This document shows positions 11,054-62,996 of a stretch of DNA of 64,000 bases, in pieces; within the stretch, counting starts at the first letter, position 1, and each line of letters begins with the position of its first letter. Origin of the DNA: a virus. The notes below the pieces were generated by a model. The model ran no database searches and had not been told where the DNA came from. It saw only the letters and a program-made list of their open reading frames with translations. The position numbers were made by a program, and so were the translations under genes. Location: IMG/VR virus record IMGVR_UViG_3300028920_000029, positions 1 through 64,000 of that record. One strand, 5' to 3'.

Positions 11054-11497
11054 TTGATGCTAGCCTCAGAAGAAAACGTTAAAGATATAACGCGAATTTT
11101 AGATTTTTTTACTACTTTAGATAATGGTTCTCAGCGTAGGCACACACAAATGTTGCTTCCGCTCATAGAGAACACTAGAATGTTACTTGATAAACTTAAA
11201 GTAGAGGTTGATTTTCGGATACAGCTTCAATCGTTACAGATGCGAGGTTTTGAAGTTAACAACTTAATATTTGGAGATTATCCAAGCTATGATACTATGG
11301 TAACTACTCTTACGGAAGTAGTGGCTAACGCAAAGAAGATGGAATCTATGCGCCAGGAATTTAATTCCTACAGGAATAAGATTCCAGATAAGACTCGGGT
11401 TCGTTTGGAAGAACTATTTAAATATCCAACACGGTACCAGGAGCTATCAAGGTTGTGGAGTAAGGTATTAGATAGAGTTAAACAGGAGGCCAGATGA
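11054..11497 (+). CDS. hypothetical protein
   Basis: GGAGG RBS; helical composition. Confidence 0.55.
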   Translation: MMLASEENVKDITRILDFFTTLDNGSQRRHTQMLLPLIENTRMLLDKLKVEVDFRIQLQSLQMRGFEVNNLIFGDYPSYDTMVTTLTEVVANAKKMESMRQEFNSYRNKIPDKTRVRLEELFKYPTRYQELSRLWSKVLDRVKQEAR

Positions 11498-20186: not shown

Positions 20187-20366
20187 ATGAAAAGTTACGT
20201 TAACCTTAAAAAGATAGCTAAGCTTAGTGATGAAGCTCAGCAGTGGATAAGTGATAAGATAGCATTTCTAATTAAAGAAGAAGGACTGACGCAGGAACAG
20301 GCGCAAGGAAAAGCTTACGGAATGGCCAGACAGAAGTTTCCGTCGGTTCCAGAAAAAGGAGAGTAG
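20187..20366 (+). CDS. small protein with N-terminal MKSYVNLKKIA tag
   Basis: Start reassigned to ATG 20187 (GAGGG upstream; follows the stop at 20176). Confidence 0.65.
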   Translation: MKSYVNLKKIAKLSDEAQQWISDKIAFLIKEEGLTQEQAQGKAYGMARQKFPSVPEKGE

Positions 20367-20367
20367 G

Positions 20368-20655
20368 ATGAAGAGCTATGTGAACATGAAGAAAGTTTCA
20401 GGAGTTGTACCAGGAGTACCTGATGGAACTGGGCCTTATGGAAGAGGAATGGGTCCTGGTGGTGGAAGGGCAGACGGTTCTGGATTACAGAATGGTCCTA
20501 AAACTAATGTAAATAAAAAGAAAGTACCTGGTGTTCCTGACGGAACAGGCCCAGGAAAGGATAGTCCAGCATGTCCGTACAATACTGACAGCGCCGATTA
20601 TGCCAAAGGATATGAGGATGGGCTTGCTGCTGGTAAGTCCAAGAAGGAGGACTAA
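20368..20655 (+). CDS. MKSYVNMKKVS-tagged Gly/Pro-rich protein with two VPGVPDGTGP repeats (DUF5320-related motif)
   Basis: AGGAG RBS; repeated DGTGP. Confidence 0.6.
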   Translation: MKSYVNMKKVSGVVPGVPDGTGPYGRGMGPGGGRADGSGLQNGPKTNVNKKKVPGVPDGTGPGKDSPACPYNTDSADYAKGYEDGLAAGKSKKED

Positions 20656-40537: not shown

Positions 40538-42271
40538 GTGATTGTTGAGCAGGTTGATCCACTCAGGTTTGTAGAGGAACACTTTACATTACAGGGAAAG
40601 CCATTTATTTTACTAGATGATACCCCAGACAATGCTAGGCATTATTTGCAAGGTATGTATAATACTATTGTCTTTAGGGCACCAGTACTAAAGAAACCCA
40701 TAATTATTGTTAAGGGTCGTCAGGTTGAGATGACAACTACAATGAATAACCTAGTGGCATACTATTTAGCCAACAATAAGTTCTTTGATATTTTGTACAC
40801 GTTTCCTAAAGGGGACCAGGCTAAGCGTTTTTCTGATACAAGGTTTGATCCGTTACTTAGGTATATGAGCGCTGCAGATATACTTCCAAGACTTAAAGAC
40901 GGTACTTATAATAAATCAGTTAAGCAGTTTGCTAATGGTTCCACGTTGTTTATTTATGGTGCGGCGGATAAAGGTGATAACATTCGAAGTATTGCTGCGC
41001 AGATGCTTATAAAGGATGAGTATCAGGATATGGATAAGGCCGTAGAGGAAACGATAGATGAAACATTAACTCACTCGAAGTATAAGCTAAACATATCTTT
41101 AGGTACGCCAAAGTATACGGCCACGAGATTTGAGGAGAGATGGAAACAATCTAATATGATGTACTACAATTTGTTTTGTGAGTCTTGTGGTACACCTTTC
41201 GTATTAACCATGGATAGAATGGTTAAGGAGCATATAGTTAGGTGCCCTAAATGTAAGCATGACGCTGATAAGAGATTACTTATTCCTAACGGTAAGTGGA
41301 TGCACCACGGAGAGAAGGACGCCGACTATTTAGGATTTCACTTATCTCAGCTATACGTACCTTATATAACACTTGAGGAGTTACAAAGGAAAATAAAGCA
41401 GCGTGAGCAGGAAGGGGCCGACGTAGAGCGGTATATTAAGAACGAAATATTAGGGGAGTTTTATAGTGGTATTAGGCAGCAGCCCGACAGAAACGTTATA
41501 AGACGGGCGTTTAATAGGGAGCTACCGTATGATGTGTTTATTCCTATGCATATTAGGGTATATATGGGAATTGATTGGGGTGGTTGGAATTCTATTGACA
41601 ACAACCCAGAAAGCAGCTATACTGTAGTTAGTATAGGAGCGTTTGATAAGTTTGGTAATTTGAGAGTAAACTACATAGAAGTTATAGATGAAAAGGATGA
41701 GATGAAGCAGGTGGATAGAGTATCGCAGCTTATAGATAAGTATCACGTATATCTAGCGGTAGCCGACAAAGGTTATGGTAAAGTAAAGAATCATCACCTT
41801 AAGGTTAAGTGGGGTAATAGATTTAAGGATTGTAAGTATCTACAAGGTAGTGCTGGTACGTTATATAAAGAAGGAGATAATGGTACTATTATGATAAACA
41901 GGGATTATTCATTAGAGGAACTATATTCGTCTATGGGTAATGGTAATATGCAGATTCCGCATAACGATCGTACAGAGTGGATCATAGAGCATTTTCTTAA
42001 TCATGAGATTATGGTTGAGGAACACGGAGGAACCGTGTACAAAAGATTTGTTAAGGTTGACGGGCATAATAAAAGAACTGACGCTGTACATTCTATAAAC
42101 TATTTAAGGATAGCAGCGTTTAAAGATAATAAAGCTTATGACCACTCACCGCTTATAGGGGCAGATAAGAAAAGGCATCAGGCCCCGAGGCCTAGGTTAT
42201 CTGGATCGGCTTTGGAAGGGCCGACTATGATGAAAATCCATAAACAGTTAAAAGCTATGAGAAGGTCCTAA
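40538..42271 (+). CDS. terL: terminase large subunit (lambda GpA-like)
   Basis: KGRQVEMTT, TFP..AKRFS, IKDEYQD (Walker B), GTPK, Zn ribbon CESC..CPKC, GFHLSQLY, MGIDWGG nuclease motif. Confidence 0.9.
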   Translation: MIVEQVDPLRFVEEHFTLQGKPFILLDDTPDNARHYLQGMYNTIVFRAPVLKKPIIIVKGRQVEMTTTMNNLVAYYLANNKFFDILYTFPKGDQAKRFSDTRFDPLLRYMSAADILPRLKDGTYNKSVKQFANGSTLFIYGAADKGDNIRSIAAQMLIKDEYQDMDKAVEETIDETLTHSKYKLNISLGTPKYTATRFEERWKQSNMMYYNLFCESCGTPFVLTMDRMVKEHIVRCPKCKHDADKRLLIPNGKWMHHGEKDADYLGFHLSQLYVPYITLEELQRKIKQREQEGADVERYIKNEILGEFYSGIRQQPDRNVIRRAFNRELPYDVFIPMHIRVYMGIDWGGWNSIDNNPESSYTVVSIGAFDKFGNLRVNYIEVIDEKDEMKQVDRVSQLIDKYHVYLAVADKGYGKVKNHHLKVKWGNRFKDCKYLQGSAGTLYKEGDNGTIMINRDYSLEELYSSMGNGNMQIPHNDRTEWIIEHFLNHEIMVEEHGGTVYKRFVKVDGHNKRTDAVHSINYLRIAAFKDNKAYDHSPLIGADKKRHQAPRPRLSGSALEGPTMMKIHKQLKAMRRS

Positions 42272-42283
42272 CGGAGGTACTAT

Positions 42284-43909
42284 ATGTACATTGAGAAAAA
42301 TCAGCCACAGATGAGTTCAAGATCAAAAAATATAATTAAGAACTCTCAGGCTTCTACTCCTGCAAATGTATTACGCAGGGAAGCGGCTATAGGTACTAGC
42401 GCTATGAGTCCTGGAGTTTTAGGTGCGGTTAACAGTGGTCCAGTTTTACGTATGGCTATGAAGCCGTTCTCTCCACTATACCAAGAATCTAACCTCATGC
42501 TTCCAAAAGATAGGAAGACCATGAACGCTTATAATAGACATTACTATGAAACGGACTACTGGGTAGGCAATGCTATAGAACTACATACAACCTTCCCGTT
42601 GGGAGGGTTTCAGATAATTTCAAGGCACAAAGAAATAGAAAAAGTGTTTAACAAGATGGCAAAAAAGATAGACTTATATAATATACTATTGGCAGTTGGT
42701 TTGGAATATTGGATATACGGAGAGTCATTCCCATTCTTAGAGTGGGATGAGACAGAAGGAATGTGGTATAGGGCAACCGTATTTAATCCAGACCTTATTG
42801 AAGTACGTAGGACTCCGTTCTCTAACAAATCAATAATATCACTTATACCAGATTCAGAACTTAAACGAATAGCGACATCGACTCACCCCTCTGACCAGGT
42901 ATTACGTTCGCAGATATCGCCGAAGATTCTCGATTACGTCCTAAAGGGTGAGTCGATTCCTTTAAACTTTAGAAACGTTGCTCACGTAGTTAGAAAGACG
43001 GTCCACCATGACGTTAGAGGAACATCTATTATTCAGCGTGTTTGGAAAGAGCTTATGCTTAGAGACGCTATGAGAGAGGTTCTTTTTGTTATGGCGCAGA
43101 ACCACATAACTCCGTTAAAGATATTTAGGATTGGAGGGAAGGAGAAAGATTACTTCCCGACGGATGATGAACTTGAGTACTGGCAGGGTATAGTTGAGGA
43201 AGCTCAGAACGACCCGAACTACTCAATTGTTACTCACGAAGCTTTCGATGTAGAGTATAAAGGTTTTACTGGGCAGGTCCTTGACGTTACACAATACTTA
43301 AAGCTTATAGAAGATCACGTTCTTCAGGGTCTTGGAGTTACTAAGGCTATCATTTCTGCCGAGGGTGTTGCTTATGCTAATGCTTCTGTAGCGTATGAAA
43401 TTCTACAGAAGAGATACTCATATGTTAGAAACGTTATGTCTCAATGGCTTATCAATAAGGTATTTATGCCAGTGTCCATCGCACACGGATTTAAAGATAA
43501 GCGTGGGGGATATATAGTTCCTATGATTAAGTGGGACAACATATCCTTTACTAAGGATGGAGATTGGAGAAGGATGATTGTTGACCTTAATAAGTCTAAA
43601 AAGGTATCTGATAGAACACTCATTACTGAAGTTGGTCTTGACTACGACGAAGAGCAGGAGCTAGTAATTAAAGAACAAGTAGCGGCCAAACTTAAGAAGG
43701 AAAATATAAAAGCTATGCAGGATCAGGCCGAAAGCGGAGGTCTTGGGGACCTTGGCGGTATGGGAGGCGGAATGGATCTTGGTGGCGGCATGGGAGGAAT
43801 GGGCGGAGGAATGTCTGACCTAGGAGACTTAGGAGAGGGATTTGCTGGCGAAGGTGGAGAAGTTCCTTCAGGAGAAATGGGAGGCGGCGAGGAACTCGGC
43901 GCTCCATAA
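42284..43909 (+). CDS. portal protein
   Basis: Directly after TerL; AIELHTTFPL, EYWIYGE, HVVRK...RGTSII, YANASVA; Gly/Met-rich acidic tail. Confidence 0.8.
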   Translation: MYIEKNQPQMSSRSKNIIKNSQASTPANVLRREAAIGTSAMSPGVLGAVNSGPVLRMAMKPFSPLYQESNLMLPKDRKTMNAYNRHYYETDYWVGNAIELHTTFPLGGFQIISRHKEIEKVFNKMAKKIDLYNILLAVGLEYWIYGESFPFLEWDETEGMWYRATVFNPDLIEVRRTPFSNKSIISLIPDSELKRIATSTHPSDQVLRSQISPKILDYVLKGESIPLNFRNVAHVVRKTVHHDVRGTSIIQRVWKELMLRDAMREVLFVMAQNHITPLKIFRIGGKEKDYFPTDDELEYWQGIVEEAQNDPNYSIVTHEAFDVEYKGFTGQVLDVTQYLKLIEDHVLQGLGVTKAIISAEGVAYANASVAYEILQKRYSYVRNVMSQWLINKVFMPVSIAHGFKDKRGGYIVPMIKWDNISFTKDGDWRRMIVDLNKSKKVSDRTLITEVGLDYDEEQELVIKEQVAAKLKKENIKAMQDQAESGGLGDLGGMGGGMDLGGGMGGMGGGMSDLGDLGEGFAGEGGEVPSGEMGGGEELGAP

Positions 43910-48091: not shown

Positions 48092-48265
48092 ATGTCATTT
48101 AAAAAGATCGGGGATTCAACACTAACAAAGGTAATCAAAGAGGATGATGGGGAAGATAAGGTTATGTTAGTGTGCCCTAAATGTGGAGTTAGATACTCTT
48201 CATCAACCTGCCCAAATTGTGACGGAGGATCCAAAAAGGATGGACGCGAAAGCAAAAGCAAATAA
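48092..48265 (+). CDS. small Zn-ribbon protein (57 aa, not in track)
   Basis: GGGAG RBS; CPKCG...CPNCDG. Confidence 0.6.
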   Translation: MSFKKIGDSTLTKVIKEDDGEDKVMLVCPKCGVRYSSSTCPNCDGGSKKDGRESKSK

Positions 48266-50735
48266 GGTTTTGGAGTACGTAGAAACAGCCCCTAAGACGC
48301 CTACCTCAGAAGAGGTAGCAACTCTTAACCAGGCTAACGCTGAGAAGCGCGCCGAGTTTACCAACGTATTAATAGATAATATTAAGAACGGGTATGTTTC
48401 CTACGAGGACGCAGTTAAACGCGCCAAGAATTACTCCAAAAATCCTGATGACGCAAGCGTTATACTTGCCAGGATTAGCGAATACGAGTTTCCTATGCAG
48501 CGTTCAGCTAGCGAGAAATCTAAATCGGAGGTTGAGAATATGGATCCTATTGCAGAGAATCTGAATGTTCTTGCTAAAAGGTTTCCCAACTGGTCCAGGT
48601 GTCTTGGAGAAGTCCTGAAAGATGAAGGATGGATTAAAGATAGCTGGAACATGGGTACTGGAGAGCAAGCCCCGCCCGATAATACTATCGAGCAGGTGAA
48701 GAAAGAAGAAGACAACAGAATGAAGTCACAAACAAAGGAAGGTGAATCCCAGATGAAAGACAACGAGAAGAAGAAAGAAGAGCATCTTAGGGCTGACGAC
48801 AAGTCTCCTAAGAAAGAAGCAGCTGACAAGAAAGCCTGGAATTTAGGTACAGGAGATGCAGTTGATTCTAAGAAGTGGGACAAGAACGTAGACAAAGAAG
48901 AAGAGAAGAGAAAAGGCGCCGAGATTAAGGAAGGCGAAAAGGTAATGAAAGAGAACGAAAAGAAAAGAGAAGAGTACCTAAGGGCTGGATCCGAGCAGTG
49001 GAAAGTTACACTTGCTAAGGATGAGAAGAACGTTAGAAAATCAGCCTGGGAGATCAGGGATACAAAAGATGGAGACCTTGTAGTTAGGGCAACCATTGAT
49101 GACATCACTGATGGTAACGAAAAGTTTACTGATGAAGCTATTGCAGAAGCTACTTCAGAAGACTTCGGAAACCTTATCACAGAAAATCTTGGAGAGCACG
49201 GCTTGGAAGCTGTTGCTAAAACACTTCTTGGTGACGACCTTACCAAGTATGCTATGGCAGAAGAAGGTTCAATTGATCAGTCCAACAAGGACACATCAAT
49301 GTTTAACGTAAAAAACTATGGTGCTACCCAGGGTAAGGGTGGAAAGGACATAGATTTTGGTAAGACAGAAGTTAAAGAAGGCGGAGAAGCAGGTAAGCAC
49401 GTTGATGCAGAAAACAAAGTATCAATGGAAAAGATCGCTTCTCAGTACTTTGCATACAGGGGTATCTTTGCTGACCTTAAGGATACAGTTTCAGAGTTTG
49501 CTAAAAAGGCTGAATCAAAGTCAGTTAGCGAGCTCGTTAAGAAAGCAGAAGATATGCTTGACGGCGTTAAGACAATGATAGACGAAGGAGCTCCAGAAGG
49601 AGATATTATAGAGCCATTAGCTGATGCAGGTTCTTCACTTAATCAGCTTAATGACATCTCATCTCTGATCGCAGAAGCTAAGGGTATGACTGACGACCCA
49701 GCTTTGGCTGAGCTTCTTGATAAAATAGAGGCTGCAGCTGCTCCAGCAGCAGACGTAGCTATAGAAGGAGAAGTAGAAATAGAATCATCTGACGCTCCTG
49801 CAGAGGAAGAAGCTTCTGAAGAAGAGAAGGAAGAAAAGGAAGAGGAAGAAGTAGACGAAACAGTTGAAGCAGCAAACTCACTGAAGAACAAACTCAAAAA
49901 GATGGCTGCTGGTAAAGACTCAAAAGACTATGACATTCCTCAGACTCACAACATTCAGAAAGATTTCCACGGCGGAGAAAAAGGAATACAGCAGGATGGA
50001 GCTAAGTTCCATAACATATGGGAAGTAGCAAAAGAAATAGACGCTATCGGCGGAAAGAAAGCTGCTGGTAAGCTGTCATCCATGCTTGCAAAGATAAAGA
50101 AAATCGCAGAAGAAAAGGGCGTAGATCCTAAGAAGTACTTCGATTCAATATTCGGAGATCCTAAAGCTACAAAAGAGTACCTAGCACCTAACTCAGTTGA
50201 CGGAGTTATGAGCGAATGGAACGCAGCTACAAAGGACAGCACTTCACAGTCTTACGCTAACTTAATAACAAAAGTAAAGAAAGCATATTGGGCAGCCCAG
50301 GACATGGTTAAGAGGGGTATGCTTAAAGAATCAAAAGAAGAGATCGATTCTCAGGTTGATAGGTTCATAAACATGGACGAAAAGAACATGGAGAACTATC
50401 TTGAAAGCCTGGAGAAGCTCTCAGCTTCCATCGATTTTGAAGATGGAAGGATCAAAGTAGCTGTTATAGACCCAGCAGAAGACAAGTTTGTTGTTAGAGG
50501 ATTTGTTGATGGTGTTCCTGTAGCAAGGTTTACTAAGGAAGACCTTAACATCTCTGGCAAGGTAACTAGAACTGCACTGAGAAGGTCAGCGGCTCTTACA
50601 AAAACAGCTCTTGAAAACGGAATGTTTGACGAAGTTTTGGCAGACGACGACGCTCTTGAATCAGTAGGCGAAACGCTTGATGGTATGAACGTTGGCGTGG
50701 AAGAAACCAAACTTACAAACATAAACGATTTTTAA
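48240..50735 (+). CDS. prohead scaffold/core-like protein
   Basis: Very acidic, helical, immediately upstream of the capsid genes; internal repeat (SWNMGTGE.../AWNLGTGD...). Start reassigned to ATG 48240. Confidence 0.6.
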   Translation: MDAKAKANKVLEYVETAPKTPTSEEVATLNQANAEKRAEFTNVLIDNIKNGYVSYEDAVKRAKNYSKNPDDASVILARISEYEFPMQRSASEKSKSEVENMDPIAENLNVLAKRFPNWSRCLGEVLKDEGWIKDSWNMGTGEQAPPDNTIEQVKKEEDNRMKSQTKEGESQMKDNEKKKEEHLRADDKSPKKEAADKKAWNLGTGDAVDSKKWDKNVDKEEEKRKGAEIKEGEKVMKENEKKREEYLRAGSEQWKVTLAKDEKNVRKSAWEIRDTKDGDLVVRATIDDITDGNEKFTDEAIAEATSEDFGNLITENLGEHGLEAVAKTLLGDDLTKYAMAEEGSIDQSNKDTSMFNVKNYGATQGKGGKDIDFGKTEVKEGGEAGKHVDAENKVSMEKIASQYFAYRGIFADLKDTVSEFAKKAESKSVSELVKKAEDMLDGVKTMIDEGAPEGDIIEPLADAGSSLNQLNDISSLIAEAKGMTDDPALAELLDKIEAAAAPAADVAIEGEVEIESSDAPAEEEASEEEKEEKEEEEVDETVEAANSLKNKLKKMAAGKDSKDYDIPQTHNIQKDFHGGEKGIQQDGAKFHNIWEVAKEIDAIGGKKAAGKLSSMLAKIKKIAEEKGVDPKKYFDSIFGDPKATKEYLAPNSVDGVMSEWNAATKDSTSQSYANLITKVKKAYWAAQDMVKRGMLKESKEEIDSQVDRFINMDEKNMENYLESLEKLSASIDFEDGRIKVAVIDPAEDKFVVRGFVDGVPVARFTKEDLNISGKVTRTALRRSAALTKTALENGMFDEVLADDDALESVGETLDGMNVGVEETKLTNINDF

Positions 50736-51767: not shown

Positions 51768-52796
51768 ATGGAAATAATTAACAAGAAAAACTCACTCGAC
51801 AAAAAGGCTAGCGTTAGCTTCGGCGACGACGGCCACATTAACGCCTCCGACCGAACAGACGCGATTAAAAGGGTTGCCAAGTACTTAAAAGCTGGCGACG
51901 AAGGTTCATATGATGAGAAGGTGTCTAACCTCTTTACCGCAGAAGAGCAGACACAGTTAACGAACAGATTTGCTTCACAGAATACAAGGTACGTAATTGG
52001 TCAGGCAATGGCTTCACCTCTTAAAACATTCTTAGAATATAAGGGTGTTATGAGAAGAGCGCTTAGGGTCGATCCTCTCGCCCCTGGTGCGCTGCCTGTG
52101 TACGACAGGGATACTGAGGAAATCTCAGCAGACGTCCTTGCAGCACAGTCTTCAGTAGATCAGACAAGGGTAATCGGCGACAGGATATACGTTCCAGTAT
52201 TTGAAATCGCTGCATATCCTACTGTTAAACTGAGGGAAATCAAGATCAGAAGGTTCAACATGATTGACCGTATCCAGGTTAGGACAAGGCAGTTCATGCA
52301 GGAATCAGAAGATGCGACAATCATCAACCTTATTGATACAGCTTCAACAAGAGACAACACCGAGTTGACTGTTGACACATCTGACTCAGGAAACGGTCTC
52401 GGCTACATCAAGAGGCTCGACCTTGTTAAGTTGGCTCGACAGATCACAAGGCACGACCTGTTCGCAGTTTCTTACTTCATGTCAATATACCGCTACAGCG
52501 ATATAGAAATGTGGGGAAGAGACGAGCTCGATATTCTGACACAGAAACAGATTATCGACACAGGCTTGCTGGCAACACTGCACGGTAAGAATATCTACGT
52601 AACCAAGAAAATTGAGTACGATACGATATACTGTACCTCAGACCCTGACTACGTTGGAATTTTCCCAGTGTACCAGGACATCGAGGTAATCCCTGCTGAC
52701 ATACCTTACCAGACATCGTTTGGCTGGGTATTCACAGAGCTTATAGGTGCCGCGATTTTCAATGGAAAAGGTGTTGCAAAGACAACTATTTCCTAA
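51768..52796 (+). CDS. major capsid protein (HK97 fold)
   Basis: QAMASPLKTFLEYKGVMRRALRVDPLAPGALPVYDRD, VPVFEIAAYP, GWVFTELIG; size, position and high-expression-like codon use. Confidence 0.85.
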   Translation: MEIINKKNSLDKKASVSFGDDGHINASDRTDAIKRVAKYLKAGDEGSYDEKVSNLFTAEEQTQLTNRFASQNTRYVIGQAMASPLKTFLEYKGVMRRALRVDPLAPGALPVYDRDTEEISADVLAAQSSVDQTRVIGDRIYVPVFEIAAYPTVKLREIKIRRFNMIDRIQVRTRQFMQESEDATIINLIDTASTRDNTELTVDTSDSGNGLGYIKRLDLVKLARQITRHDLFAVSYFMSIYRYSDIEMWGRDELDILTQKQIIDTGLLATLHGKNIYVTKKIEYDTIYCTSDPDYVGIFPVYQDIEVIPADIPYQTSFGWVFTELIGAAIFNGKGVAKTTIS

Positions 52797-53016: not shown

Positions 53017-53625
53017 GTGAACATAACTAGATTGGCTTTGAAAGCTAAGAAAAAGTACGTAACTGATTCCAAAGAGTATATGAGGTTGCATTGCCAAGCT
53101 TATAGGTATGAATTCAAACTTAAGGCTTTAAAGATTTATGGTTTGGTTTGTGCTGAGTGCGGGATGGATGACCCAGATACTTTATGTTTTGACCATATTG
53201 GTGGCGTAAGGAAGGAAGATAGGTCACCCTCGTTCATTTATAGGTTGGTGCGGGAACCTAAAAGAGAGGATATCCAGATACTTTGTGCGAACTGTAACTG
53301 GAAAAAGCAAAGTAACCTTTATACTAGACGTAGCCCAAGGACATACTTTACCACTAAAGTTAAGGTGTTGAGGGCTTATAGTACCACACCTGAGGCTTCT
53401 TGTGTGTTATGTGGCGAGAATGATATAGAATTACTTTGTGTTGATCATATTGACGGGGGAGGAAACAAACATAAGCGTACAGCTAATATTAAGGGACGAC
53501 TACCTACTTGGTTAAAAAAGCATAATTATCCGCCAGGATACAGAACCTTGTGTTTTAATTGTAATTTGAAATCATATATAAAACTAGCACGTGCAAGGCT
53601 TCACGAGGTCTTGCACGCTCCGTAA
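53017..53625 (+). CDS. tandem (double) HNH endonuclease
   Basis: Two repeats: CAECG..DHI..QILCANCN and CVLCG..DHIDGGG..RTLCFNCN. Confidence 0.85.
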   Translation: MNITRLALKAKKKYVTDSKEYMRLHCQAYRYEFKLKALKIYGLVCAECGMDDPDTLCFDHIGGVRKEDRSPSFIYRLVREPKREDIQILCANCNWKKQSNLYTRRSPRTYFTTKVKVLRAYSTTPEASCVLCGENDIELLCVDHIDGGGNKHKRTANIKGRLPTWLKKHNYPPGYRTLCFNCNLKSYIKLARARLHEVLHAP

Positions 53626-53795: not shown

Positions 53796-54617
53796 ATGGC
53801 CTTACCTAAACCTACCGATTTTACAGGTACTTATGAGCCCTTAGCCTATGACAGGTTTTCCGCCAATCTTTTGTGGACTCCCGTAGATGGCGCGGATGAG
53901 TACTGGATTTACAGAGACTTAGATAAGATAGTAGTAGAGCCTCCCTTTGAGACTACTGTATACAACAACCAGGAATATGTTATCTATAGGGATACTGCTG
54001 CGTGGACCAACGCGCAGCCTCTGGATTGTTTCTTTTGGGTACAGGCAGTAGAAGGCCCAGATGCTACAGGTAACTACGAAGAGGGAGACCAGACCGACGC
54101 CCTGTCTCTTATCCATCCATTTGTTATAAGGATTATAGAAGAGGCCAGGTCTATGATAGGAGACGACTTTAGGATCTTTGGTAACATAGCTTCCACTGGT
54201 ACTGACCTACTTGAACAGGTAAGCGCTTATAACTATAAGGTGGCTGTGGAGCAGGCTTTATCCGACATCAACTCTACTCCTACTCCTACGGCGTATAACT
54301 ATGGTACCTTCCCCGCAATGTGGAAGAACCTAATAACCGTGGGTACCTTGGTGTGGATGCTGCCCAGACTTATATTATTCGAGAAAGCTAAGGCTATGCA
54401 GTTTCAGGATCAGGGGCAGGAGTGGACTCCACCCGATCTATCAGAGTCCCTTAAGGGATTGCTCGATATGTATAAAGATATATATGACGACAGGCGAGTG
54501 GCTATTAAACATAACGTGAGGCCTATGCCTAAGGCTGTGGGAAGTCTTCGTGCTCTTTTCATATCACCACAGTTGCTCAAATGGCGCCATGTGCCCACAG
54601 GAAGGCCTTATTTTTAA
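53796..54617 (+). CDS. head-tail adaptor/neck-like protein
   Basis: Position after MCP; FN3-like N-terminus (LLWTPVDGADEYWIYR); ALSDINSTPTPT...F.DQG motif. Confidence 0.5.
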   Translation: MALPKPTDFTGTYEPLAYDRFSANLLWTPVDGADEYWIYRDLDKIVVEPPFETTVYNNQEYVIYRDTAAWTNAQPLDCFFWVQAVEGPDATGNYEEGDQTDALSLIHPFVIRIIEEARSMIGDDFRIFGNIASTGTDLLEQVSAYNYKVAVEQALSDINSTPTPTAYNYGTFPAMWKNLITVGTLVWMLPRLILFEKAKAMQFQDQGQEWTPPDLSESLKGLLDMYKDIYDDRRVAIKHNVRPMPKAVGSLRALFISPQLLKWRHVPTGRPYF

Positions 54618-54740: not shown

Positions 54741-55751
54741 ATGGAAAAGAGAAAACGTGGAAAGAAAGTTACGGTAGTATGCGACGCTTGTGGTAAGGAG
54801 TTCACTAAGCCACCTAGCCTCGTGAAATCACGAAACTATTGTAACCGAGAATGTAAGGCGAAGGGAAACTCAATGCTCTTTGATCAGGAACCAGAGAGGC
54901 GTAAGTTGGCAGCTCAGAAAACTAAGGAACAGCTTGCAACCAAGGGCCACCCCAGTATTGGTAGGCACCATAACGCTGAAACCAAGATTAAGATAAGTGA
55001 AAAGCGCAAAGCCTTTTATCAAACTGAGGAAGGTAAAGAAGCCAGGACTAAGATATCCGAGCAGCGTAGGGCCAGCGCTGGTAACTATCATCACTCCGAT
55101 GAAACCATCGAGAAGATACGAGCCAAGAAGCTAGAGCGTGATAAGGACCCAAGCTACCAGGACAAGATTAACGACTCACTAGAAGAAAAGCGAAAGGACC
55201 CAGAGTACCATAAGAACCTTAGTGAAGGGGTTAAGCGTTTCCATGCTAGTCCAGAAGGACATGAGGTAGCCAAGCGTAAGAGTATTAAGATGAGACTAAT
55301 AAAAAAATCGTTCTATAAAACTCCTGAAGGTAAGCTGGTTAGGGGGAAATTAAGTAGTCTCATGTCTGATAAAATAGTTTCAGGAGAAATAAAGCCCAAT
55401 AGTCATGGGCACTTCGGTATACGCGCGGATCTTAACGAAGTCTTTAGGTCCAACTTAGAAGCTAACTACGCCAGGATACTTAAGTACAAAGGTACCTCAT
55501 ATGAATATGAGAATACGACATTTAAACTTAGTACTGGGCAGACTTACACACCAGACTTTTACTTACCAGATACTGACGAATATGTAGAACTAAAAGGATA
55601 TTATAAGGCAGGAGAAAGACTTAAGTACGATATGTTTAAAAAGGAGTACCCCAACGTGAAGTGGAGAATTATACTACAGACATCACAGGAGTGGGAAGAC
55701 TTAAGGAGTAAGTACAAACCCTTAATCCCACTATGGGAAGGAGTAAAATGA
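54741..55751 (+). CDS. free-standing homing-type endonuclease: Zn finger + NUMOD3 repeats + PD-(D/E)xK nuclease
   Basis: CDACGKEF..YCNREC; GRHHNAETKIKISE, HHSDETIEKIR; RSNLEANYA..YEYE..YTPDFYLP..VELKGY. Confidence 0.8.
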   Translation: MEKRKRGKKVTVVCDACGKEFTKPPSLVKSRNYCNRECKAKGNSMLFDQEPERRKLAAQKTKEQLATKGHPSIGRHHNAETKIKISEKRKAFYQTEEGKEARTKISEQRRASAGNYHHSDETIEKIRAKKLERDKDPSYQDKINDSLEEKRKDPEYHKNLSEGVKRFHASPEGHEVAKRKSIKMRLIKKSFYKTPEGKLVRGKLSSLMSDKIVSGEIKPNSHGHFGIRADLNEVFRSNLEANYARILKYKGTSYEYENTTFKLSTGQTYTPDFYLPDTDEYVELKGYYKAGERLKYDMFKKEYPNVKWRIILQTSQEWEDLRSKYKPLIPLWEGVK

Positions 55752-56146
55752 AAAGCTACGTTAACTTAAAAAAGTTAGGATCAGATGTGTTATCCCAACT
55801 TAAAGATGAAAATAAAAAGCAGCTGTATAAAGATGCAGTTAAGGCGCTGCCACTTTTATCTAAGTTTGAGCTCCACCCGCCCATTAGTCCTGGTTACTAT
55901 GATATAATACTTACATTAGACACATCAGGGTTACTTCAGAGTACGGCTACAGCCATAGTTAACAAGATTTTAGATGCTGGTCAGGAGTTATTTGATAAAC
56001 GTATAGTGGATATAGACGGTGCAGTGAGTTTTACTGGTGGTAGACTATGGTTGTTTGGTCAGGGAAAAGACAGCTTTATGTCGGTTATTAACCAGGGCGC
56101 CAAAATTGACACTATAGACGTAAGTATAGGAGAAGTAATAAAATAA
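55748..56146 (+). CDS. MKSYVNLKKLG-tagged protein carrying one PxL(S/R)KF-family domain
   Basis: ATG 55748 with AAGGAG RBS; ALPLLSKF..LTLDTSG. Confidence 0.65.
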   Translation: MKSYVNLKKLGSDVLSQLKDENKKQLYKDAVKALPLLSKFELHPPISPGYYDIILTLDTSGLLQSTATAIVNKILDAGQELFDKRIVDIDGAVSFTGGRLWLFGQGKDSFMSVINQGAKIDTIDVSIGEVIK

Positions 56147-56167: not shown

Positions 56168-57991
56168 GTGGAAATAGATAACAAAGCTACAGAAGAGCAA
56201 GGTTTAGAGTTGGCGTATAGACTAATTCCTTTTCTACGGAAGTTTACTTACAAGAAATTTTCTCCTAGGTCTATGACGCTACACTGGACTTTGGACGTAT
56301 CAAAAATGTCCAGGCAGTTTATTATTAGTATAATGAAAAAACTAGCTGAGCTGCATAATATCGAAGATTTAAATTATAGACCTTCTAAAAGGATGCTAAA
56401 TTGTTTTTTGCGAGATGAGCACGGACGTGGAATAACTAATAACTTTGTTACTCCTCATTCGATAGAACACACAGTAGCTACGGAGCCTAATATTCCCACG
56501 CTTATAACCGAAGAGCTTGCGCTTAATAGCGATGATATGGTTAAGAAATCTAAAAGCCTCGTTAACTTAAAGAAAGCAGCCAAAGACGGGGTGTTAGAAG
56601 AAATATATTCGATTCTTCCAGAGTTACGAAAGTTTTCTATGTTTCGGTATTTTGGTTCGGAAGCCAACCCATATACAGATTTTAAACTTAATGTGGAGGG
56701 TTGGTCTAGGACTGCTATAATAGGTGTGATGAAGCTCATAAGGCATTCTGGGTTTGTGGGTAAGCTACGAGCGGCGGGCAGTGGTGAGTTAATTAGCTCT
56801 TGGTATAACGACGAAAGCTTAAACATAGCCCTAGCGAACCCAAATATTTATCCCTTGTCCATATCTGTAAGGATATATGACATATCTATTCGTCCCACGC
56901 AAGCAGGAAGCCTCGTTAACTTAAAGAAAGTATCTACAGCTGACGGTAAATGGGAACTTAACTATATACTTAGTGTAGTCCCAGAGCTAAGCAAGTTTAA
57001 CATAAGTGCTCCTATACAAGTATATAACGGAGACCTGGTTCAGTTTAAGTTTAGTTTGGGTGCTGGGCCGCTCAGTAACGTTACTGTAGCTACCTTGCTA
57101 CGTAATATCTATAAAAAACTTATTGAGAACGCGAGGAATAATAAGCCTATACGGAATACTTATGCGGACATGTCCATAGAACTAAGTCCTCAACTTAAAG
57201 ATACGTCGGTTTTGGAAGATACCTACCCTGCGCTTGGTGAGGTAGTAGCTCAGGCCGAAAGAGGTAACATAGCTATACTTGCGATGTATATTATGACTCC
57301 CTCTAAAGAGTACCGAGATGGCGAACCAGAAAAAAGGAACCGACCTCTGCGGGACTATACGGATGCTAAGTCCTGCGTTAACTTAAAAAGAATATCAGCA
57401 GAAGATGAAAAGATGAATAACATACTTAGATATAAGGTTATGCAGCTTAGAAATGATAAGGATATAGAAGCTTATATTCCAGTGTATTATAAGAAGATAA
57501 TAGATAAGTTTAGGAAGGGTGAGCACCTGCAGCCCCCAGAAATCATGGGGTCCATTAAGTCTATCAACGACGCGTTAAAATCGTGGAGGGATAGCAAAGA
57601 GCACTACAGAAAGATGCACGGGAGTTACGTTAACTTAAAAAAGATAGCTGAAGATAAGCTGGACAAGTTTTGTCCGTCTTGTGGTATGATGGTTGACAGG
57701 TTGTACCCAGTTATTGGTAAGGAAAAGATATGCTATGATTGTTACAAGAAGATGCTTAGGGACCGTAAGAAGAAAGCTGGAAGGTTTGAAAGTGATAAAG
57801 AGTTGGAGGATGTTAAGGAACTCTTTGCTTACTTTGAGAAGCAGCCCTATCCATGGAACGAAAGGGCCGAAGCTATAGCAAAGAAGCATGATTACTATGG
57901 TACTCCGTTATCCATAGTTAAACGGATGTTAGTAAACATACAAAAGGAACAGCAGGGAGTAGATCAATTTCCAACTAAGGAGGATAAGTAA
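56168..57991 (+). CDS. modular polyprotein-like ORF: three PxL(S/R)KF domains, further domains and a Zn finger, separated by four SxVNLK(K/R) linkers
   Basis: Linkers at 56555, 56909, 57371, 57623; CPSC..CYDC. Confidence 0.65.
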   Translation: MEIDNKATEEQGLELAYRLIPFLRKFTYKKFSPRSMTLHWTLDVSKMSRQFIISIMKKLAELHNIEDLNYRPSKRMLNCFLRDEHGRGITNNFVTPHSIEHTVATEPNIPTLITEELALNSDDMVKKSKSLVNLKKAAKDGVLEEIYSILPELRKFSMFRYFGSEANPYTDFKLNVEGWSRTAIIGVMKLIRHSGFVGKLRAAGSGELISSWYNDESLNIALANPNIYPLSISVRIYDISIRPTQAGSLVNLKKVSTADGKWELNYILSVVPELSKFNISAPIQVYNGDLVQFKFSLGAGPLSNVTVATLLRNIYKKLIENARNNKPIRNTYADMSIELSPQLKDTSVLEDTYPALGEVVAQAERGNIAILAMYIMTPSKEYRDGEPEKRNRPLRDYTDAKSCVNLKRISAEDEKMNNILRYKVMQLRNDKDIEAYIPVYYKKIIDKFRKGEHLQPPEIMGSIKSINDALKSWRDSKEHYRKMHGSYVNLKKIAEDKLDKFCPSCGMMVDRLYPVIGKEKICYDCYKKMLRDRKKKAGRFESDKELEDVKELFAYFEKQPYPWNERAEAIAKKHDYYGTPLSIVKRMLVNIQKEQQGVDQFPTKEDK

Positions 57992-58161
57992 TGGCTACTA
58001 AAAAGCATGGGCGTAACAAAGACAAGTGTAAGTTGTATCAATCTAACGGGACTAGAAGAAAGAACAAAGTTAGGAATCTTAAGAAGAGATTAAAAGGGTA
58101 TAAGAGCCCAGAGAACTATATGATAGATGAAGATAAGTTTATGATTGTGAAGGTAAAATGA
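57991..58161 (+). CDS. small basic protein (56 aa, not in track)
   Basis: AGGAGG RBS; MATKKHGRNKDKCK... Confidence 0.55.
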   Translation: MATKKHGRNKDKCKLYQSNGTRRKNKVRNLKKRLKGYKSPENYMIDEDKFMIVKVK

Positions 58162-58268
58162 AGATACTTAAATATATTGCGTTTGGTTTTTGGATATTAG
58201 TAGCAATAGTTATATACATAGTCTGCGCAATATGGGACGGTATTAAGAGATTGTTTGGGAGGATATAG
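58158..58268 (+). CDS. small membrane peptide (36 aa, not in track)
   Basis: ATGA overlap; MKILKYIAFGFWILVAIVIYIVCAIWDGIKRLFGRI. Confidence 0.5.
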   Translation: MKILKYIAFGFWILVAIVIYIVCAIWDGIKRLFGRI

Positions 58269-58594
58269 TGTTTACTGTAGCAGGATGGAAAGAGGATGAG
58301 GACAGAGCGATGAAGACTGCCTACAAGTTGTATCAGAAACTTGTAGCCTCAGAGTATCCTGGTGTGAAGGATAAGGCGGAGAAGATAGCTAGCGACTTAG
58401 TGCTTAAAAATATAAATGTTTACGAAGCGTTGGGGGAGTTCAGGAGTATATTTGTTCCTTCTGAAAAAGAATTTAGTATGGAAGACGGGTCAACAATGGA
58501 ACACCTCAAAGAAAGACACGGACTTATAAAACTAATTTTAAAGGAGGGATACCATGTTACAGCTCCTAAAGTTTTTATTCGTAGGAAAGGATAA
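58268..58594 (+). CDS. hypothetical protein
   Basis: GGGAGG RBS before GTG. Confidence 0.5.
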   Translation: MFTVAGWKEDEDRAMKTAYKLYQKLVASEYPGVKDKAEKIASDLVLKNINVYEALGEFRSIFVPSEKEFSMEDGSTMEHLKERHGLIKLILKEGYHVTAPKVFIRRKG

Positions 58595-58862
58595 GTTTGC
58601 GCAGGAATGGTTTGATAAGATACTTGAAGCTACAGAGAGGTTGTCTAAGTCTGGGCAAAGAAAACTGTTTAAGACTGTGCTGGCTATGCTGTTAGTTTTT
58701 ATCCTGTGCATACTATTTATTGTAGTAGCTCACGATAAAGACTTTTTTCTTCAAGGAATACAAGCATTCCTGACGGCTATCTGTGTGTTGGCTGGAGTAT
58801 ATAGTGTGGCTAACTCAGTTGAGCATGCCACTGATGGAGGTAAGAAAAAGAATGGCAAGTAA
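58554..58862 (+). CDS. holin-like two-TM membrane protein
   Basis: RKLF + TM1; TM2 ending LAGVYSVANSVEH; basic tail. Confidence 0.5.
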   Translation: MLQLLKFLFVGKDKFAQEWFDKILEATERLSKSGQRKLFKTVLAMLLVFILCILFIVVAHDKDFFLQGIQAFLTAICVLAGVYSVANSVEHATDGGKKKNGK

Positions 58863-59250
58863 TCCAGAACCATATACTAAAGACCAGATAGTGGAATACA
58901 TAGTATCTTATCTTCCTAGTCTACGTAAGTTTGACTTATATAGCTTTGATGAGGTTCAGCCAAATAAGATGACCACTTTAGTGTTTAGGTTAGATGTATC
59001 TAAGTTTAATATATCTACGAGGGTAAAGCTAATTTACAACTTGGCTGACGCTGCTAAGGCTGTTAACGATACAGATGGCGCGTCTATTAGTTTTGACTCG
59101 CCTCTGTTTAAAAGGCTTGATGCTAACGGAGAAGACCTTTCGACGTCCTCTCGGTTCGTATTAAGGCAAGACGGGCATAGTGTGGTAGAAGAAAAGGCTG
59201 CAGACCCAAAGTTTCACTACATCGAAATGACGGTATTTTATTATGGTTGA
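58852..59250 (+). CDS. single PxL(S/R)KF-family domain protein (no tag)
   Basis: ATG 58852 with GGAGG upstream; YLPSLRKF..FRLDVSKF. Confidence 0.6.
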   Translation: MASNPEPYTKDQIVEYIVSYLPSLRKFDLYSFDEVQPNKMTTLVFRLDVSKFNISTRVKLIYNLADAAKAVNDTDGASISFDSPLFKRLDANGEDLSTSSRFVLRQDGHSVVEEKAADPKFHYIEMTVFYYG

Positions 59251-59351: not shown

Positions 59352-60221
59352 ATGTTTATAAAGACTGCTGATTGTTCTGTTGTAGACGTCTTAGATACCA
59401 GGAAAGCTGGGTCTATCTTTGATGAGATAGTTACCAACTCCGAGATAGCTAAGGCTTCTACGCTGGACGAGAGTGATATAAGGCGTCAAGGTTATAATAG
59501 GTTTAGGGCTATAGCCGAGAAACGTTCTGATCGTTTGGCTATAGCAACCAGAGCCATCTCAGCTTATGAAACTCACTCGTTTAACAAGAACGGTGATGCC
59601 TTTGAGAGGGATCAACTTGAGAAATTTCATAAGACGTTTATACTTAAGCCGCATCTTTGGGACCACGATTTATCAATAGGTTCAGTTAGGGGTATAATAG
59701 CTGACGCAAGTTGGAATCCAAAGGAAGACTATGTTGAGACGCTTATCTTTATTGATAGGGAACAGTTTCCTAAGTATGCTTCTAACGTGGAGAAGGGGTA
59801 CATAAATAGTTTTTCTATGGGAGTAGAAGTTAAGGAGGCTGAGTGTTCTATTTGTCACAATATCGCGCGGACACCCGCGGAATTATGTATTCACGCAGAA
59901 AGATACAAAGGACTTTACGTTCAGGGTAAGAAGTGTTTTGAGTTTAACAGGGACCTGGAGTTTATTGAGCAGAGTGCTGTTGCATCTCCAGCAGACCCAG
60001 ACTCACATACTTTGTACATACTGGCGCACGCAAAGGCTGGTCAGCATAAAGAGATAGAGAATCTTAGGAAGCTTGCGTCAATACTTGATAGCTATACAGA
60101 GGAAGACAAGCGTAGGTTTAACGATGAGTACTACCTTATCACATCTTCTGTTGATAGGTTGGCTACCAGAATAGCAAAGGATCTTGGGATATCGTTTGGG
60201 GATCCGAGGCGAGGTGAGTAA
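59352..60221 (+). CDS. prohead maturation protease-like protein (with Zn-binding insert)
   Basis: NKNGDAF, HLWDHD (His), RGIIADA, SFSMG (Ser), CSIC..C.H, FIEQSAVASPAD; herpes/HK97-type protease pattern. Confidence 0.7.
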   Translation: MFIKTADCSVVDVLDTRKAGSIFDEIVTNSEIAKASTLDESDIRRQGYNRFRAIAEKRSDRLAIATRAISAYETHSFNKNGDAFERDQLEKFHKTFILKPHLWDHDLSIGSVRGIIADASWNPKEDYVETLIFIDREQFPKYASNVEKGYINSFSMGVEVKEAECSICHNIARTPAELCIHAERYKGLYVQGKKCFEFNRDLEFIEQSAVASPADPDSHTLYILAHAKAGQHKEIENLRKLASILDSYTEEDKRRFNDEYYLITSSVDRLATRIAKDLGISFGDPRRGE

Positions 60222-61917: not shown

Positions 61918-62691
61918 ATGGCATATTTAAGAAACATACCAAGCAGCGGTGACCCGTTTGAGAAAGGTAAGAATGGATTTATACCATCTAATCCTACCGA
62001 CGCTGGGGTGGAGCAGAGGTTTGATAGCTTGACAGATAGGTTCCAACCTAAGGAACAGTATACAAGAAAGATATACCAGGTAGCAACTGGAGATGAGAAC
62101 GTACTGCACGAACATATTGAAAGGCTTAGCAGGATGATAGAAGCCAGAGGCGAGCTTGTAACGCTTGTTAAACGTAAACTTGATGGTGAAAGATGTAACT
62201 GCTATGATACAGTTATGGATGTTGTTAGGCGTAAGTATTGCTTGCAGTGTTATGGTACTAGGATAAAGAATGGTTATGAGCTATTTAATAATACTAATAG
62301 AGATGATGGTAAGATATACATAGCGGCTCCGTTTGCTGAAGCTAGGATAGATTGGGAAGACCACGGACGAGTACAGACGGAGGAGCTAACTTATTGGACT
62401 TTGCCGTATACCCCGTTAGAAAACGGAAGCACTACGTATTCTTACGACTGGTTAATAAGATATAATAATGATGGTACTGAGTTAGGAAGGTATTATATAC
62501 ATAATGTTAAACCTTCTAGGAGTGTAGATAACTATGTTACGTATCAACACTTTACGGCTGCGTTAGCAACAAGACCTACTTACGATCATGAAGGAACTAT
62601 GGTAAGGCGAGGCGATTTGATATATGAAGTGGATACTAGTACGTTAGATGTAGTTGAGGGAAACTTAGAAAAAGGAGCTGACGAACGATGA
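61918..62691 (+). CDS. head-closure/neck-like protein with Cys cluster
   Basis: GELVTLVKR..GERCNC..CLQCYGT..GY. Confidence 0.5.
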   Translation: MAYLRNIPSSGDPFEKGKNGFIPSNPTDAGVEQRFDSLTDRFQPKEQYTRKIYQVATGDENVLHEHIERLSRMIEARGELVTLVKRKLDGERCNCYDTVMDVVRRKYCLQCYGTRIKNGYELFNNTNRDDGKIYIAAPFAEARIDWEDHGRVQTEELTYWTLPYTPLENGSTTYSYDWLIRYNNDGTELGRYYIHNVKPSRSVDNYVTYQHFTAALATRPTYDHEGTMVRRGDLIYEVDTSTLDVVEGNLEKGADER

Positions 62692-62996
62692 AATCAGTAG
62701 TTAACTTATACAAGATAGCTAAGTGGGAAGCTGAGCATGAAGCTGCTCTTAAAGAAGATGCAATGAGAGAGAAGGGAGAACAAATAGAGGGAGGGCTTGC
62801 CGATAATATGACATTGGAAGACATAGCTAATAGGCATGGAGTAAACATGGGTAAGATAGTGTCACAAATAAATAAAGGTATCCGTGTTGAGTATGAGCAC
62901 ACGAATGATGCTAAACAAGCTATGGAGATAGCTAAGGATCATCTGGTTGAGGATTCAGAATACTACACAAAATTAGAAATGATAGAAAATCACTAA
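62688..62996 (+). CDS. DUF5661-like protein with N-terminal MKSVVNLYKIA tag
   Basis: GGLAD...KGIRVEYEHT..AMEIAKDHLVED..YYTKL. Confidence 0.75.
   Translation: MKSVVNLYKIAKWEAEHEAALKEDAMREKGEQIEGGLADNMTLEDIANRHGVNMGKIVSQINKGIRVEYEHTNDAKQAMEIAKDHLVEDSEYYTKLEMIENH

Follow-up and report, generated by a model that had tools for sequence, protein, structure and literature searches.

In bacteriophage T4, a capsid targeting sequence (CTS) is carried by the internal proteins IPI-III and Alt and is removed by the prohead protease gp21, and the scaffold core is where these tagged internal proteins are believed to go (PMC8442874, PMC3012670, PMC9026906). In phiKZ, 201phi2-1, and SPN3US, head and inner-body proteins are processed at several sites by gp175/gp245 (PMC10052503, PMC9026906). 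Here, we analyzed a window of 64,000 nucleotides (nt) at the start of one phage record of 173,362 bp (IMG/VR record IMGVR_UViG_3300028920_000029), with a focus on a 607-amino-acid (aa) open reading frame (ORF) at positions 56168..57991 of the plus strand, in which four internal copies of a short peptide, also found at the N termini of separately encoded proteins and hereafter called the tag, stand between successive small domains, of which there are five or six. We propose that this ORF encodes a multi-cargo precursor, in which a head-loading tag similar to the T4 CTS or the encapsulin cargo-loading peptides would introduce each cassette and would probably be the place of cutting, a reading drawn from sequence whose chances of being right or wrong we consider evenly balanced. 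The modular, tag-punctuated architecture and its evolutionary plasticity can be read directly from the sequences compared, head loading is what we infer by analogy to be the best-supported function of the tag, and the putative cleavage into separate products is plausible.

Architecture of the 607-aa ORF

The ORF begins with GTG, 8 to 13 nt downstream of a Shine-Dalgarno (SD)-like GGAGAG, and lies in the head module between the major capsid protein gene and a prohead-type protease gene. Its four internal copies of S-x-V-N-L-K-K/R-x-[A/S] have their Ser at residues 130, 248, 402, and 486 (Ser codons at 56555, 56909, 57371, and 57623), and the linkers KSLVNLKKAA, GSLVNLKKVS, KSCVNLKRIS, and GSYVNLKKIA occur in the single open frame exactly as an original prediction, made from the letters of the window alone, had quoted them. 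From the N terminus, the ORF comprises an A1 domain (aa 1-129; 56168..56554; profile envelope 3-133; 28% identity to A2), tag 1 (aa 130-138; 56555..56581), the A2 domain body (56582..56908; envelope 134-249), tag 2 (aa 248-256; 56909..56935; first 21 nt identical to tag 1), the A3 domain body with a long C-terminal extension (56936..57370; envelope 252-396), and tag 3 (aa 402-410; 57371..57397), whose Ser codon is TCC and not AGY. A helical basic segment follows (aa 411-485; 57398..57622; of low confidence in AlphaFold2 [AF2], with an isoelectric point [pI] of 9.5 for the whole tag-to-tag segment), and then tag 4 (aa 486-494; 57623..57649), which precedes a Cys4 zinc ribbon (about aa 498-536; 57659..57775), and a C-terminal helical segment behind a basic patch (57776..57988). 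All of these features are on the plus strand. The last junction, "KKKA", which had been proposed as a further linker, turned out to be the basic patch only, with no copy of the tag. Like viral maturation polyproteins in general, the locus thus consists of a single ORF with several autonomous domains and one repeated consensus site between them.

Segments 1-129, 130-247, and 248-401 are paralogues at 28 to 29% identity, and two further paralogues are encoded nearby on the plus strand, one with a tag before its A domain (A0; 55748..56146) and one without a tag (58855..59250). According to a profile built from these five paralogues, tags 1 to 3 lie at repeat junctions, since the envelopes fall at 3-133, 134-249, and 252-396, while tag 4 stands before the zinc ribbon, whose autonomy and N-terminal boundary follow from the 132-aa protein P0026 of another phage, which begins with the ribbon as a separate protein. 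The placement of the linkers at domain boundaries was therefore borne out. The initial residues of A1, V-V-E-I-D-N-K, align with the tag and resemble a decayed copy of it. Moreover, the A0 gene and the 607-aa ORF share one reading frame and are divided only by two stops and a ribosome-binding site, which occupy the exact spot expected for a tag; the ATG at 55748 is a likelier A0 start than 55733, because AAGGAG precedes the former. For the A1-A3 part, the arrangement may have arisen by tandem duplication of a tag-plus-domain unit rather than by fusion of separate genes. As internal translation starts, the internal tags were rejected, with an SD at none of them and a Met within two codons at one only.

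All segments of the ORF have a pI of 8.7 to 9.5, versus 4.7 for the scaffold-like protein of the same phage. Pfam and PHROGs gave no family for the 607-aa ORF or the A-domain genes, and an exhaustive phmmer search of 1.8 billion representative proteins left the ORF an orphan, the zinc ribbon alone having a relative. Likewise, no homologues of the ORF were found by a word-index search, by tblastn against 50,697 phage records, or by an IMG/VR pattern scan.

The tag is conserved as a peptide

When all six frames of the complete 173,362-bp genome were scanned, the full motif appeared outside the 607-aa ORF only at the N termini of the ORFs starting at 20187, 20368, and 55748, together with a variant (Y for K) at 62688. 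The first two encode a 59-aa protein (20187..20366) and a 95-aa Gly-rich protein (20368..20655) with an additional internal tag-like repeat, and the variant opens a 102-aa DUF5661 protein (62688..62996; Pfam, 2e-13), all on the plus strand. The eight sites are all on the coding strand, in frame, and either at an N terminus or at a domain junction, and six of the eight are located in the head module. A scoring matrix made solely from the tags of related phages recovered all eight at the top of the 173-kb genome; at a threshold of 14, five matches were obtained, versus none in a reversed-sequence control.

The codons point to selection on the peptide, because the Ser is encoded by AGT, AGC, TCC, and TCA (thus by both the AGY and TCN families), the Lys codons also vary, and the related phages use other codons. 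Moreover, the internal tags remained nearly identical while the A domains drifted to 28 to 29% identity, which argues that they are under selection for a function of their own; an internal copy with its own function would be either a processing site or a separate docking point. The DNA of the tags is also more uniform than codon usage predicts: the eight tag-coding stretches have 103 same-codon pairs versus 64 expected from codon usage (simulation, p<0.0002), and they share a GTTAACTTA core. Such uniformity suggests homogenization or recombination at the tags in addition to selection on the peptide.

Among the tagged proteins of this genome, the DUF5661 protein is the sole member of a curated family. 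The 20368-20655 protein is built of a repeated P-D-G-T-G-P-x-G-R-G-M-G-P-G unit with weak likeness to DUF5320, and its internal tag-like repeat reads T-N-V-N-K-K-K; a homologue of it, along with a second, untagged DUF5320-like ORF, is found in the related phage L011 (5214-5712) inside the head module, while here it lies 35 kb away.

The tag in related phages

The capsid protein has relatives with 56 to 80% identity, the closest being P0003 (80%), and by means of an alignment of these, loci of related phages were retrieved from IMG/VR and JGI metagenomes. For the tag comparison, six genomes were used, namely, this phage and five relatives whose capsid proteins are 56 to 74% identical. In these five relatives, copies of the S-F-V/I-N-F-K-K type start many unrelated small proteins and occur inside longer ones, and the tagged genes are located in or beside a variable region that extends from the capsid gene to the prohead protease gene, in which gene starts of the form M-S-F-[V/I]-N-F-K-[K/R]-hydrophobic-small are abundant. 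Synteny is kept on both flanks, while the segment between the gene for a conserved 273-aa protein and the protease gene is unrelated in sequence and 2.2 to 4 kb in length; in L011, the tagged genes sit just upstream of the 273-aa gene instead. The gene directly after the protease gene is also tag-initial in three relatives, and in a complete 150-kb relative all five strict DNA matches are coding-strand sites within the variable part of the head module. No copy of the A domain was found with the A-domain profile in the relatives' loci.

A logo of 30 instances consists of S (26/30), F/Y, V/I, N (30/30), F/L, K, K/R, a hydrophobic residue, and A/S/G; in every case the residue behind the Asn is F, L, M, or V, and the flanks show a strand-like alternating pattern. 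Twenty of the instances directly follow a start codon and 10 are internal, and tag-initial ORFs number four in this genome and about 16 in the relatives. As judged from these comparisons, the motif is a clade-wide, peptide-level tag common to unrelated head-module proteins of six genomes.

Tagged cassettes occur fused and separate

Homologous cassettes occur both fused and separate among the relatives, with the tag at the junction, and thus cassette number and order vary. In P0026, the opening zinc ribbon (64% identity to that of the 607-aa ORF) is followed by a degenerate S-S-V-N-L tag at the place matching the KKKA junction, and the C-terminal domain is 43% identical (E 2e-15) to a separate small ORF of the window (58268..58594, plus strand), whose homologue is therefore fused behind the ribbon there; a word-index search of P0026 against longer proteins found nothing. 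Similarly, an 82-aa tagged protein of the relative L007 (6782-7030) is 87% identical to aa 452-490 of a 524-aa tagged fusion in the relative L002 (12812-14386), where the matching region stands behind a weakly nucleotidyltransferase-like domain (sub-threshold in Pfam) and an internal tag that retains its Met. In a second pair, a 343-aa protein of L007 is 56% identical to a 300-aa protein of L002 and one internal tag is conserved in both, while the L007 protein has a second tag, decayed in L002, and an extra C-terminal tagged cassette absent from the L002 orthologue. These cases indicate that the tags are the places where cassettes get joined or separated, and the variable cassette number and order anticipated by the original prediction were met with in the L007/L002 pairs, in P0026, and in the same-frame A0 gene. 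The idea that formerly separate tagged cassettes were fused into one ORF stood as far as modularity is concerned, considering that the same tag leads separate genes and that relatives have fused and split versions; A1-A3 may be a tandem duplication instead.

The 82-aa protein of L007 has its best match (2e-4) to a bacterioferritin, and its likeness to the encapsulin ferritin-like cargo proteins EncB, EncC, and EncFtn is weak (E 0.036-0.55). In the L002 fusion, the ferritin-like region (aa 452-512) also lies behind a Gly-rich L-G-P-G repeat.

Head module and candidate processing enzyme

The head module begins with genes for the large terminase (40538-42271) and the portal (42284-43909), followed on the plus strand by an 850-aa, strongly acidic scaffold-like protein (48183..50735; pI 4.7), a candidate docking partner for the basic tags, and the major capsid protein (51768..52796; phrog_2522 at 3e-54), which is 37.6% identical to gp27 of Bacillus phage G and is of the HK97 fold type. 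Behind the conserved 273-aa protein (53796-54617), the small-gene segment extends to the gene for the prohead (head maturation) serine protease (59352..60221, plus strand; phrog_18299 at 1e-13), the candidate processing enzyme, which starts 1.4 kb downstream of the 607-aa ORF. Its Atlas neighbors are annotated as Peptidase_S78, S77, and S80, and it is syntenic in the relatives at 54 to 62% identity, with a conserved Ser in an N-S-F-S-M-G block; a PDB sequence search gave no match, and five orthologues of the protease matched no Pfam model, including S77 (the gp21 family).

A half-motif of the tag, L-K/R-K-hydrophobic-A/G, is conserved in all relatives at two places, in the scaffold-like protein (aa about 560-580) at a domain boundary after an acidic low-complexity linker and in the protease (aa 236-244) about 50 residues from the C terminus; as hints only, these are candidate maturation sites. 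The capsid N terminus (aa 9-31; 51768-51860) is unusually conserved, with the pattern hydrophobic-D-K-K-A-x-V-S-F ... G-x-I-N-A-x-D, in which this phage and its closest relative have L as the hydrophobic residue and those relatives whose tags are of the F type have F, a single covariation event. This loose resemblance is a hint that processing or docking connected with the tag may take place at the capsid N terminus.

An HNH endonuclease gene (53017-53625) and an endonuclease I/NUMOD-type gene (54741-55751) are inserted within the head module, and no homologues of either were found in the four relatives with full synteny data; in L011, an unrelated double-HNH gene follows the capsid gene. Directly 3' of the 607-aa ORF, with overlapping stop and start, lies an extremely basic 56-aa ORF (57991-58161; pI 10.4, net charge +14), and next comes a short ORF for a hydrophobic single-pass peptide (about 58158-58270). 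The two tagged ORFs at 20.2 kb are preceded, at a distance of 2 kb, by a 2207-aa ORF (11494-18117) for which PHROGs gave no match.

Proposed mechanism and alternative explanations

Head loading is suggested by the position in the head module, the occurrence of the tag at the N termini of unrelated, fast-changing, and mildly basic proteins, the adjoining protease gene, and, in relatives, the tagged gene after it. We propose that the tag S-[F/Y/L]-[V/I]-N-[L/F]-K-[K/R]-hydrophobic-[A/S/G] would introduce each cassette of the precursor, namely, three paralogous alpha/beta A domains, the helical segment, and the zinc ribbon with its helical tail, and would, as the head assembles, attach the protein that carries it to the inside of the procapsid or to the acidic scaffold, and that the prohead protease encoded downstream would then cut the precursor apart at the tags. 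If the cut fell before the conserved Ser, all products would begin with the tag, as the separately encoded cassettes do, and in the relatives Met removal would expose the same Ser; if it fell behind the small residue at tag position 9, the tag would be lost, as happens in T4. The sequence data favor neither option over the other. The products, putative effectors in the original prediction, would be internal proteins of the head, mildly basic and possibly co-injected.

Several observations weigh against this proposal. The AF2 model of the full-length protein had a mean predicted local distance difference test (pLDDT) score of 35 and is useless, that of A2 with its flanking tags, built on the five-paralogue alignment, reached a moderate 57 overall, and a Foldseek search of the A2 model against the PDB and BFVD returned nothing below E 0.03 and no fold match. 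Two tagged genes (20187 and 20368) lie 35 kb from the head module, and a good tag is absent from two A-domain copies, A1 and 58855-59250. Neither the capsid protein nor the portal has a clear tag copy, and thus the specificity of the protease for the tag is unreadable from its standard substrates. The pattern hydrophobic-K-K-hydrophobic-small gave 24 matches, versus a mean of about 9 for permuted orders, and is frequent across the proteome; by this permutation test, it was too unspecific to carry weight as a protease site. Finally, encapsulin targeting peptides are uncleaved, so loading does not imply cutting.

In the A2 model, the alpha/beta core had a pLDDT of 66 to 77 and both tag-bearing ends scored below 50 outside the core. 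These ends speak for the proposal, but structure prediction, which had been suggested as a check for independent domains with flexible linkers, was poor overall and added little. Two candidates were rejected: type IV pilins, the top matches of the A2 model, are noise (E 0.27, with the hydrophobic N-terminal helix absent), and a small AEP/primase-like domain for A1, hinted at by the Atlas, was at chance level (0.92) and was not used.

The most serious alternative, which we nevertheless take to be unlikely, is that the tag loads cargo in the manner of encapsulin cargo-loading peptides and is never cut, the whole 607-aa protein being tethered like beads on a string to several capsid or scaffold subunits through its four internal tags and the decayed N-terminal one. 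The HK97-fold capsid, the likeness of a relative's tagged protein to encapsulin ferritin-like cargo, and the lack of the tag on any standard protease substrate all suit uncut docking, and multivalent binding accounts equally well for selection on the internal tags. However, a prohead protease is encoded in the same module, the conserved small residue at position 9 and Ser at position 1 resemble a processing site, and the free interchange between fused and split forms among the relatives is easiest if fusions are resolved later. Removal of the tag without an addressing role, as a leader cut by a host protease of the type Prp/ribosomal protein L27 as in staphylococcal phage 80alpha, has little probability in our view. 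The tag core, hydrophobic-N-L/F-K-K-hydrophobic-small, does share the outline of the L27 motif (D/N)-L-Q-(F/L)-F'A (PMC9405229), and the tag is N-terminal and about 10 residues long like the L27 leader; but K/R and I/L/V stand where the Prp cut site has its neighboring aromatics, the tag is missing from the capsid protein (in 80alpha, the chief substrate of Prp), no Prp was found in the phage (no match to PF04327), and a search for the host via prophage or metagenome-assembled genome relatives found none. Moreover, Bacillus phage G, whose host has the L27 leader, uses an unrelated-looking tag.

The uniformity of the tag-coding DNA raises another possibility, that the repeats are DNA-level recombination modules or scars of cassette shuffling with a functionless peptide, and that the 607-aa ORF is an accidental read-through fusion. 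Synonymous-codon sharing above expectation, the common core, and the 21-nt identity of tags 1 and 2 speak for it, yet the Ser switches between the AGY and TCN families, the relatives keep the peptide with other codons and an F-for-L change, frame and strand are always coding, and the tags persist despite flanking domains at 28 to 29% identity; as a full explanation, it is very unlikely. The least probable of the explanations weighed is that the invariant Asn performs chemistry: the chain could cleave itself behind this residue, like the maturing capsid proteins of nodaviruses and tetraviruses (Asn-Ala, Asn-Phe), or the Asn could be joined to a capsid Lys through an isopeptide bond, for which HK97 chainmail and pilin isopeptags are precedents. 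The Asn is the sole invariant residue (30/30), with F, L, M, or V behind it and strand-like surroundings, but no catalytic partner was identified, the analogous tag of phage G has no Asn, and a dedicated protease is present.

Analogous tag in Bacillus phage G and implications

A six-frame search of Bacillus phage G (NC_023719; 497 kb) gave seven copies of [K/R]-R-L-I-K-K (16058, 28221, 73333, 147657, 245997, 254655, and 446712), all of them immediately behind an ATG or TTG start codon, and gp10, gp20 (encoded next to the protease gp19, on its downstream side), and others begin with shorter variants of this motif. This tag is analogous to that of the window, homology being undecidable for so short a peptide. 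One of the proteins that carry it is a SLOG LDcluster4 domain, and an N-terminal block of the F-H-G-T-S type is common to three or four of them. As phage G is a cultured system, packaging and processing of its tagged proteins should be readable from mass spectra.

A wider view, which we hold to be possible but rather doubtful as a whole, is that of a general, portable head-loading tag, with an invariant Asn, which as a whole would also serve as a processing site, in a lineage that would reach Bacillus phage G, as a phage counterpart of the encapsulin peptide: cutting before the Ser would regenerate an identical tag, cassettes would be joined or released by loss or gain of a stop codon, and the packaged, possibly injected set would be readable from sequence. 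If the precursor proposal is true, sequence alone would suffice to list the internal and ejected proteins of an uncultured clade of phages, and such proteins are where anti-defense and host-takeover functions tend to sit. A tag that works both N-terminally and internally would also offer a simple evolutionary route to add, drop, fuse, and split packaged cargo, and it would add to the T4 CTS and the encapsulin peptides a further natural short peptide by which HK97-fold shells could be loaded with foreign proteins. The tagged ferritin-like, encapsulin-type cargo in a relative bears on the relationship between phage capsids and encapsulins.

Comparison with known systems

African swine fever virus, one of the large eukaryotic dsDNA viruses, makes core-shell polyproteins, pp220 and pp62, that are cut at Gly-Gly-X. 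The likeness to the 607-aa ORF lies in one ORF that gives several internal virion proteins through a repeated consensus site and a virus protease at maturation, whereas virus lineage, protease, and motif are all unrelated and cleavage is only inferred for the phage. Encapsulin cargo-loading peptides (family 1) are likewise short, common to unrelated cargo, and docked inside an HK97-fold shell, and a relative's tagged protein weakly matches their half-ferritin cargo; unlike the tag, they are usually C-terminal, of the Gly-Ser-Leu type, and uncleaved, the tag being N-terminal or internal with another consensus, in a tailed phage with portal, terminase, and protease. The Prp/L27 leader on the capsid and scaffold proteins of 80alpha is similar to the tag in length and in its D/N-L-polar-x-hydrophobic-small outline (PMC9405229, PMC5744158), but aromatics, a tag on the capsid protein, and a Prp gene are lacking here. 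In the phiKZ type, as at this locus, head proteins of large phages, some of them paralogous, are cut (here, putatively) at several copies of one short motif; there, however, the sites, which read S/A/G-x-Glu, are repeated within long propeptides that end up destroyed, whereas here folded, paralogous domains are set apart by the repeats, every one of which is a complete nine-residue tag identical to an N-terminal leader. No S/A/G-x-Glu was found at the tags, the 30-instance logo having no fixed Glu and an acidic residue occurring only at variable distance after the tag.

The T4 CTS is similar in being an N-terminal peptide of about 10 residues on unrelated, fast-changing, mostly basic small proteins encoded with the head genes, and tags of both phages open with M-K-[S/T]-Y. 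The cores differ, V-N-L-K-K here versus Q-E-F-I-A-E in T4, and this phage has no consistent hydrophobic-x-Glu cut motif and a protease outside Pfam S77. The papers searched mention neither the phage G tag nor that of this phage. The precursor design had been put forward as undescribed; capsid-targeting tags (T4) and multisite processing of head proteins (phiKZ, SPN3US) are known, but the papers searched contained no cargo precursor punctuated by its targeting tag. A tagged T4 protein has a single tag, at its N terminus, whereas here the tag also recurs inside proteins, and this internal, repeated use of the tag as punctuation is the new element relative to known capsid-targeting tags.

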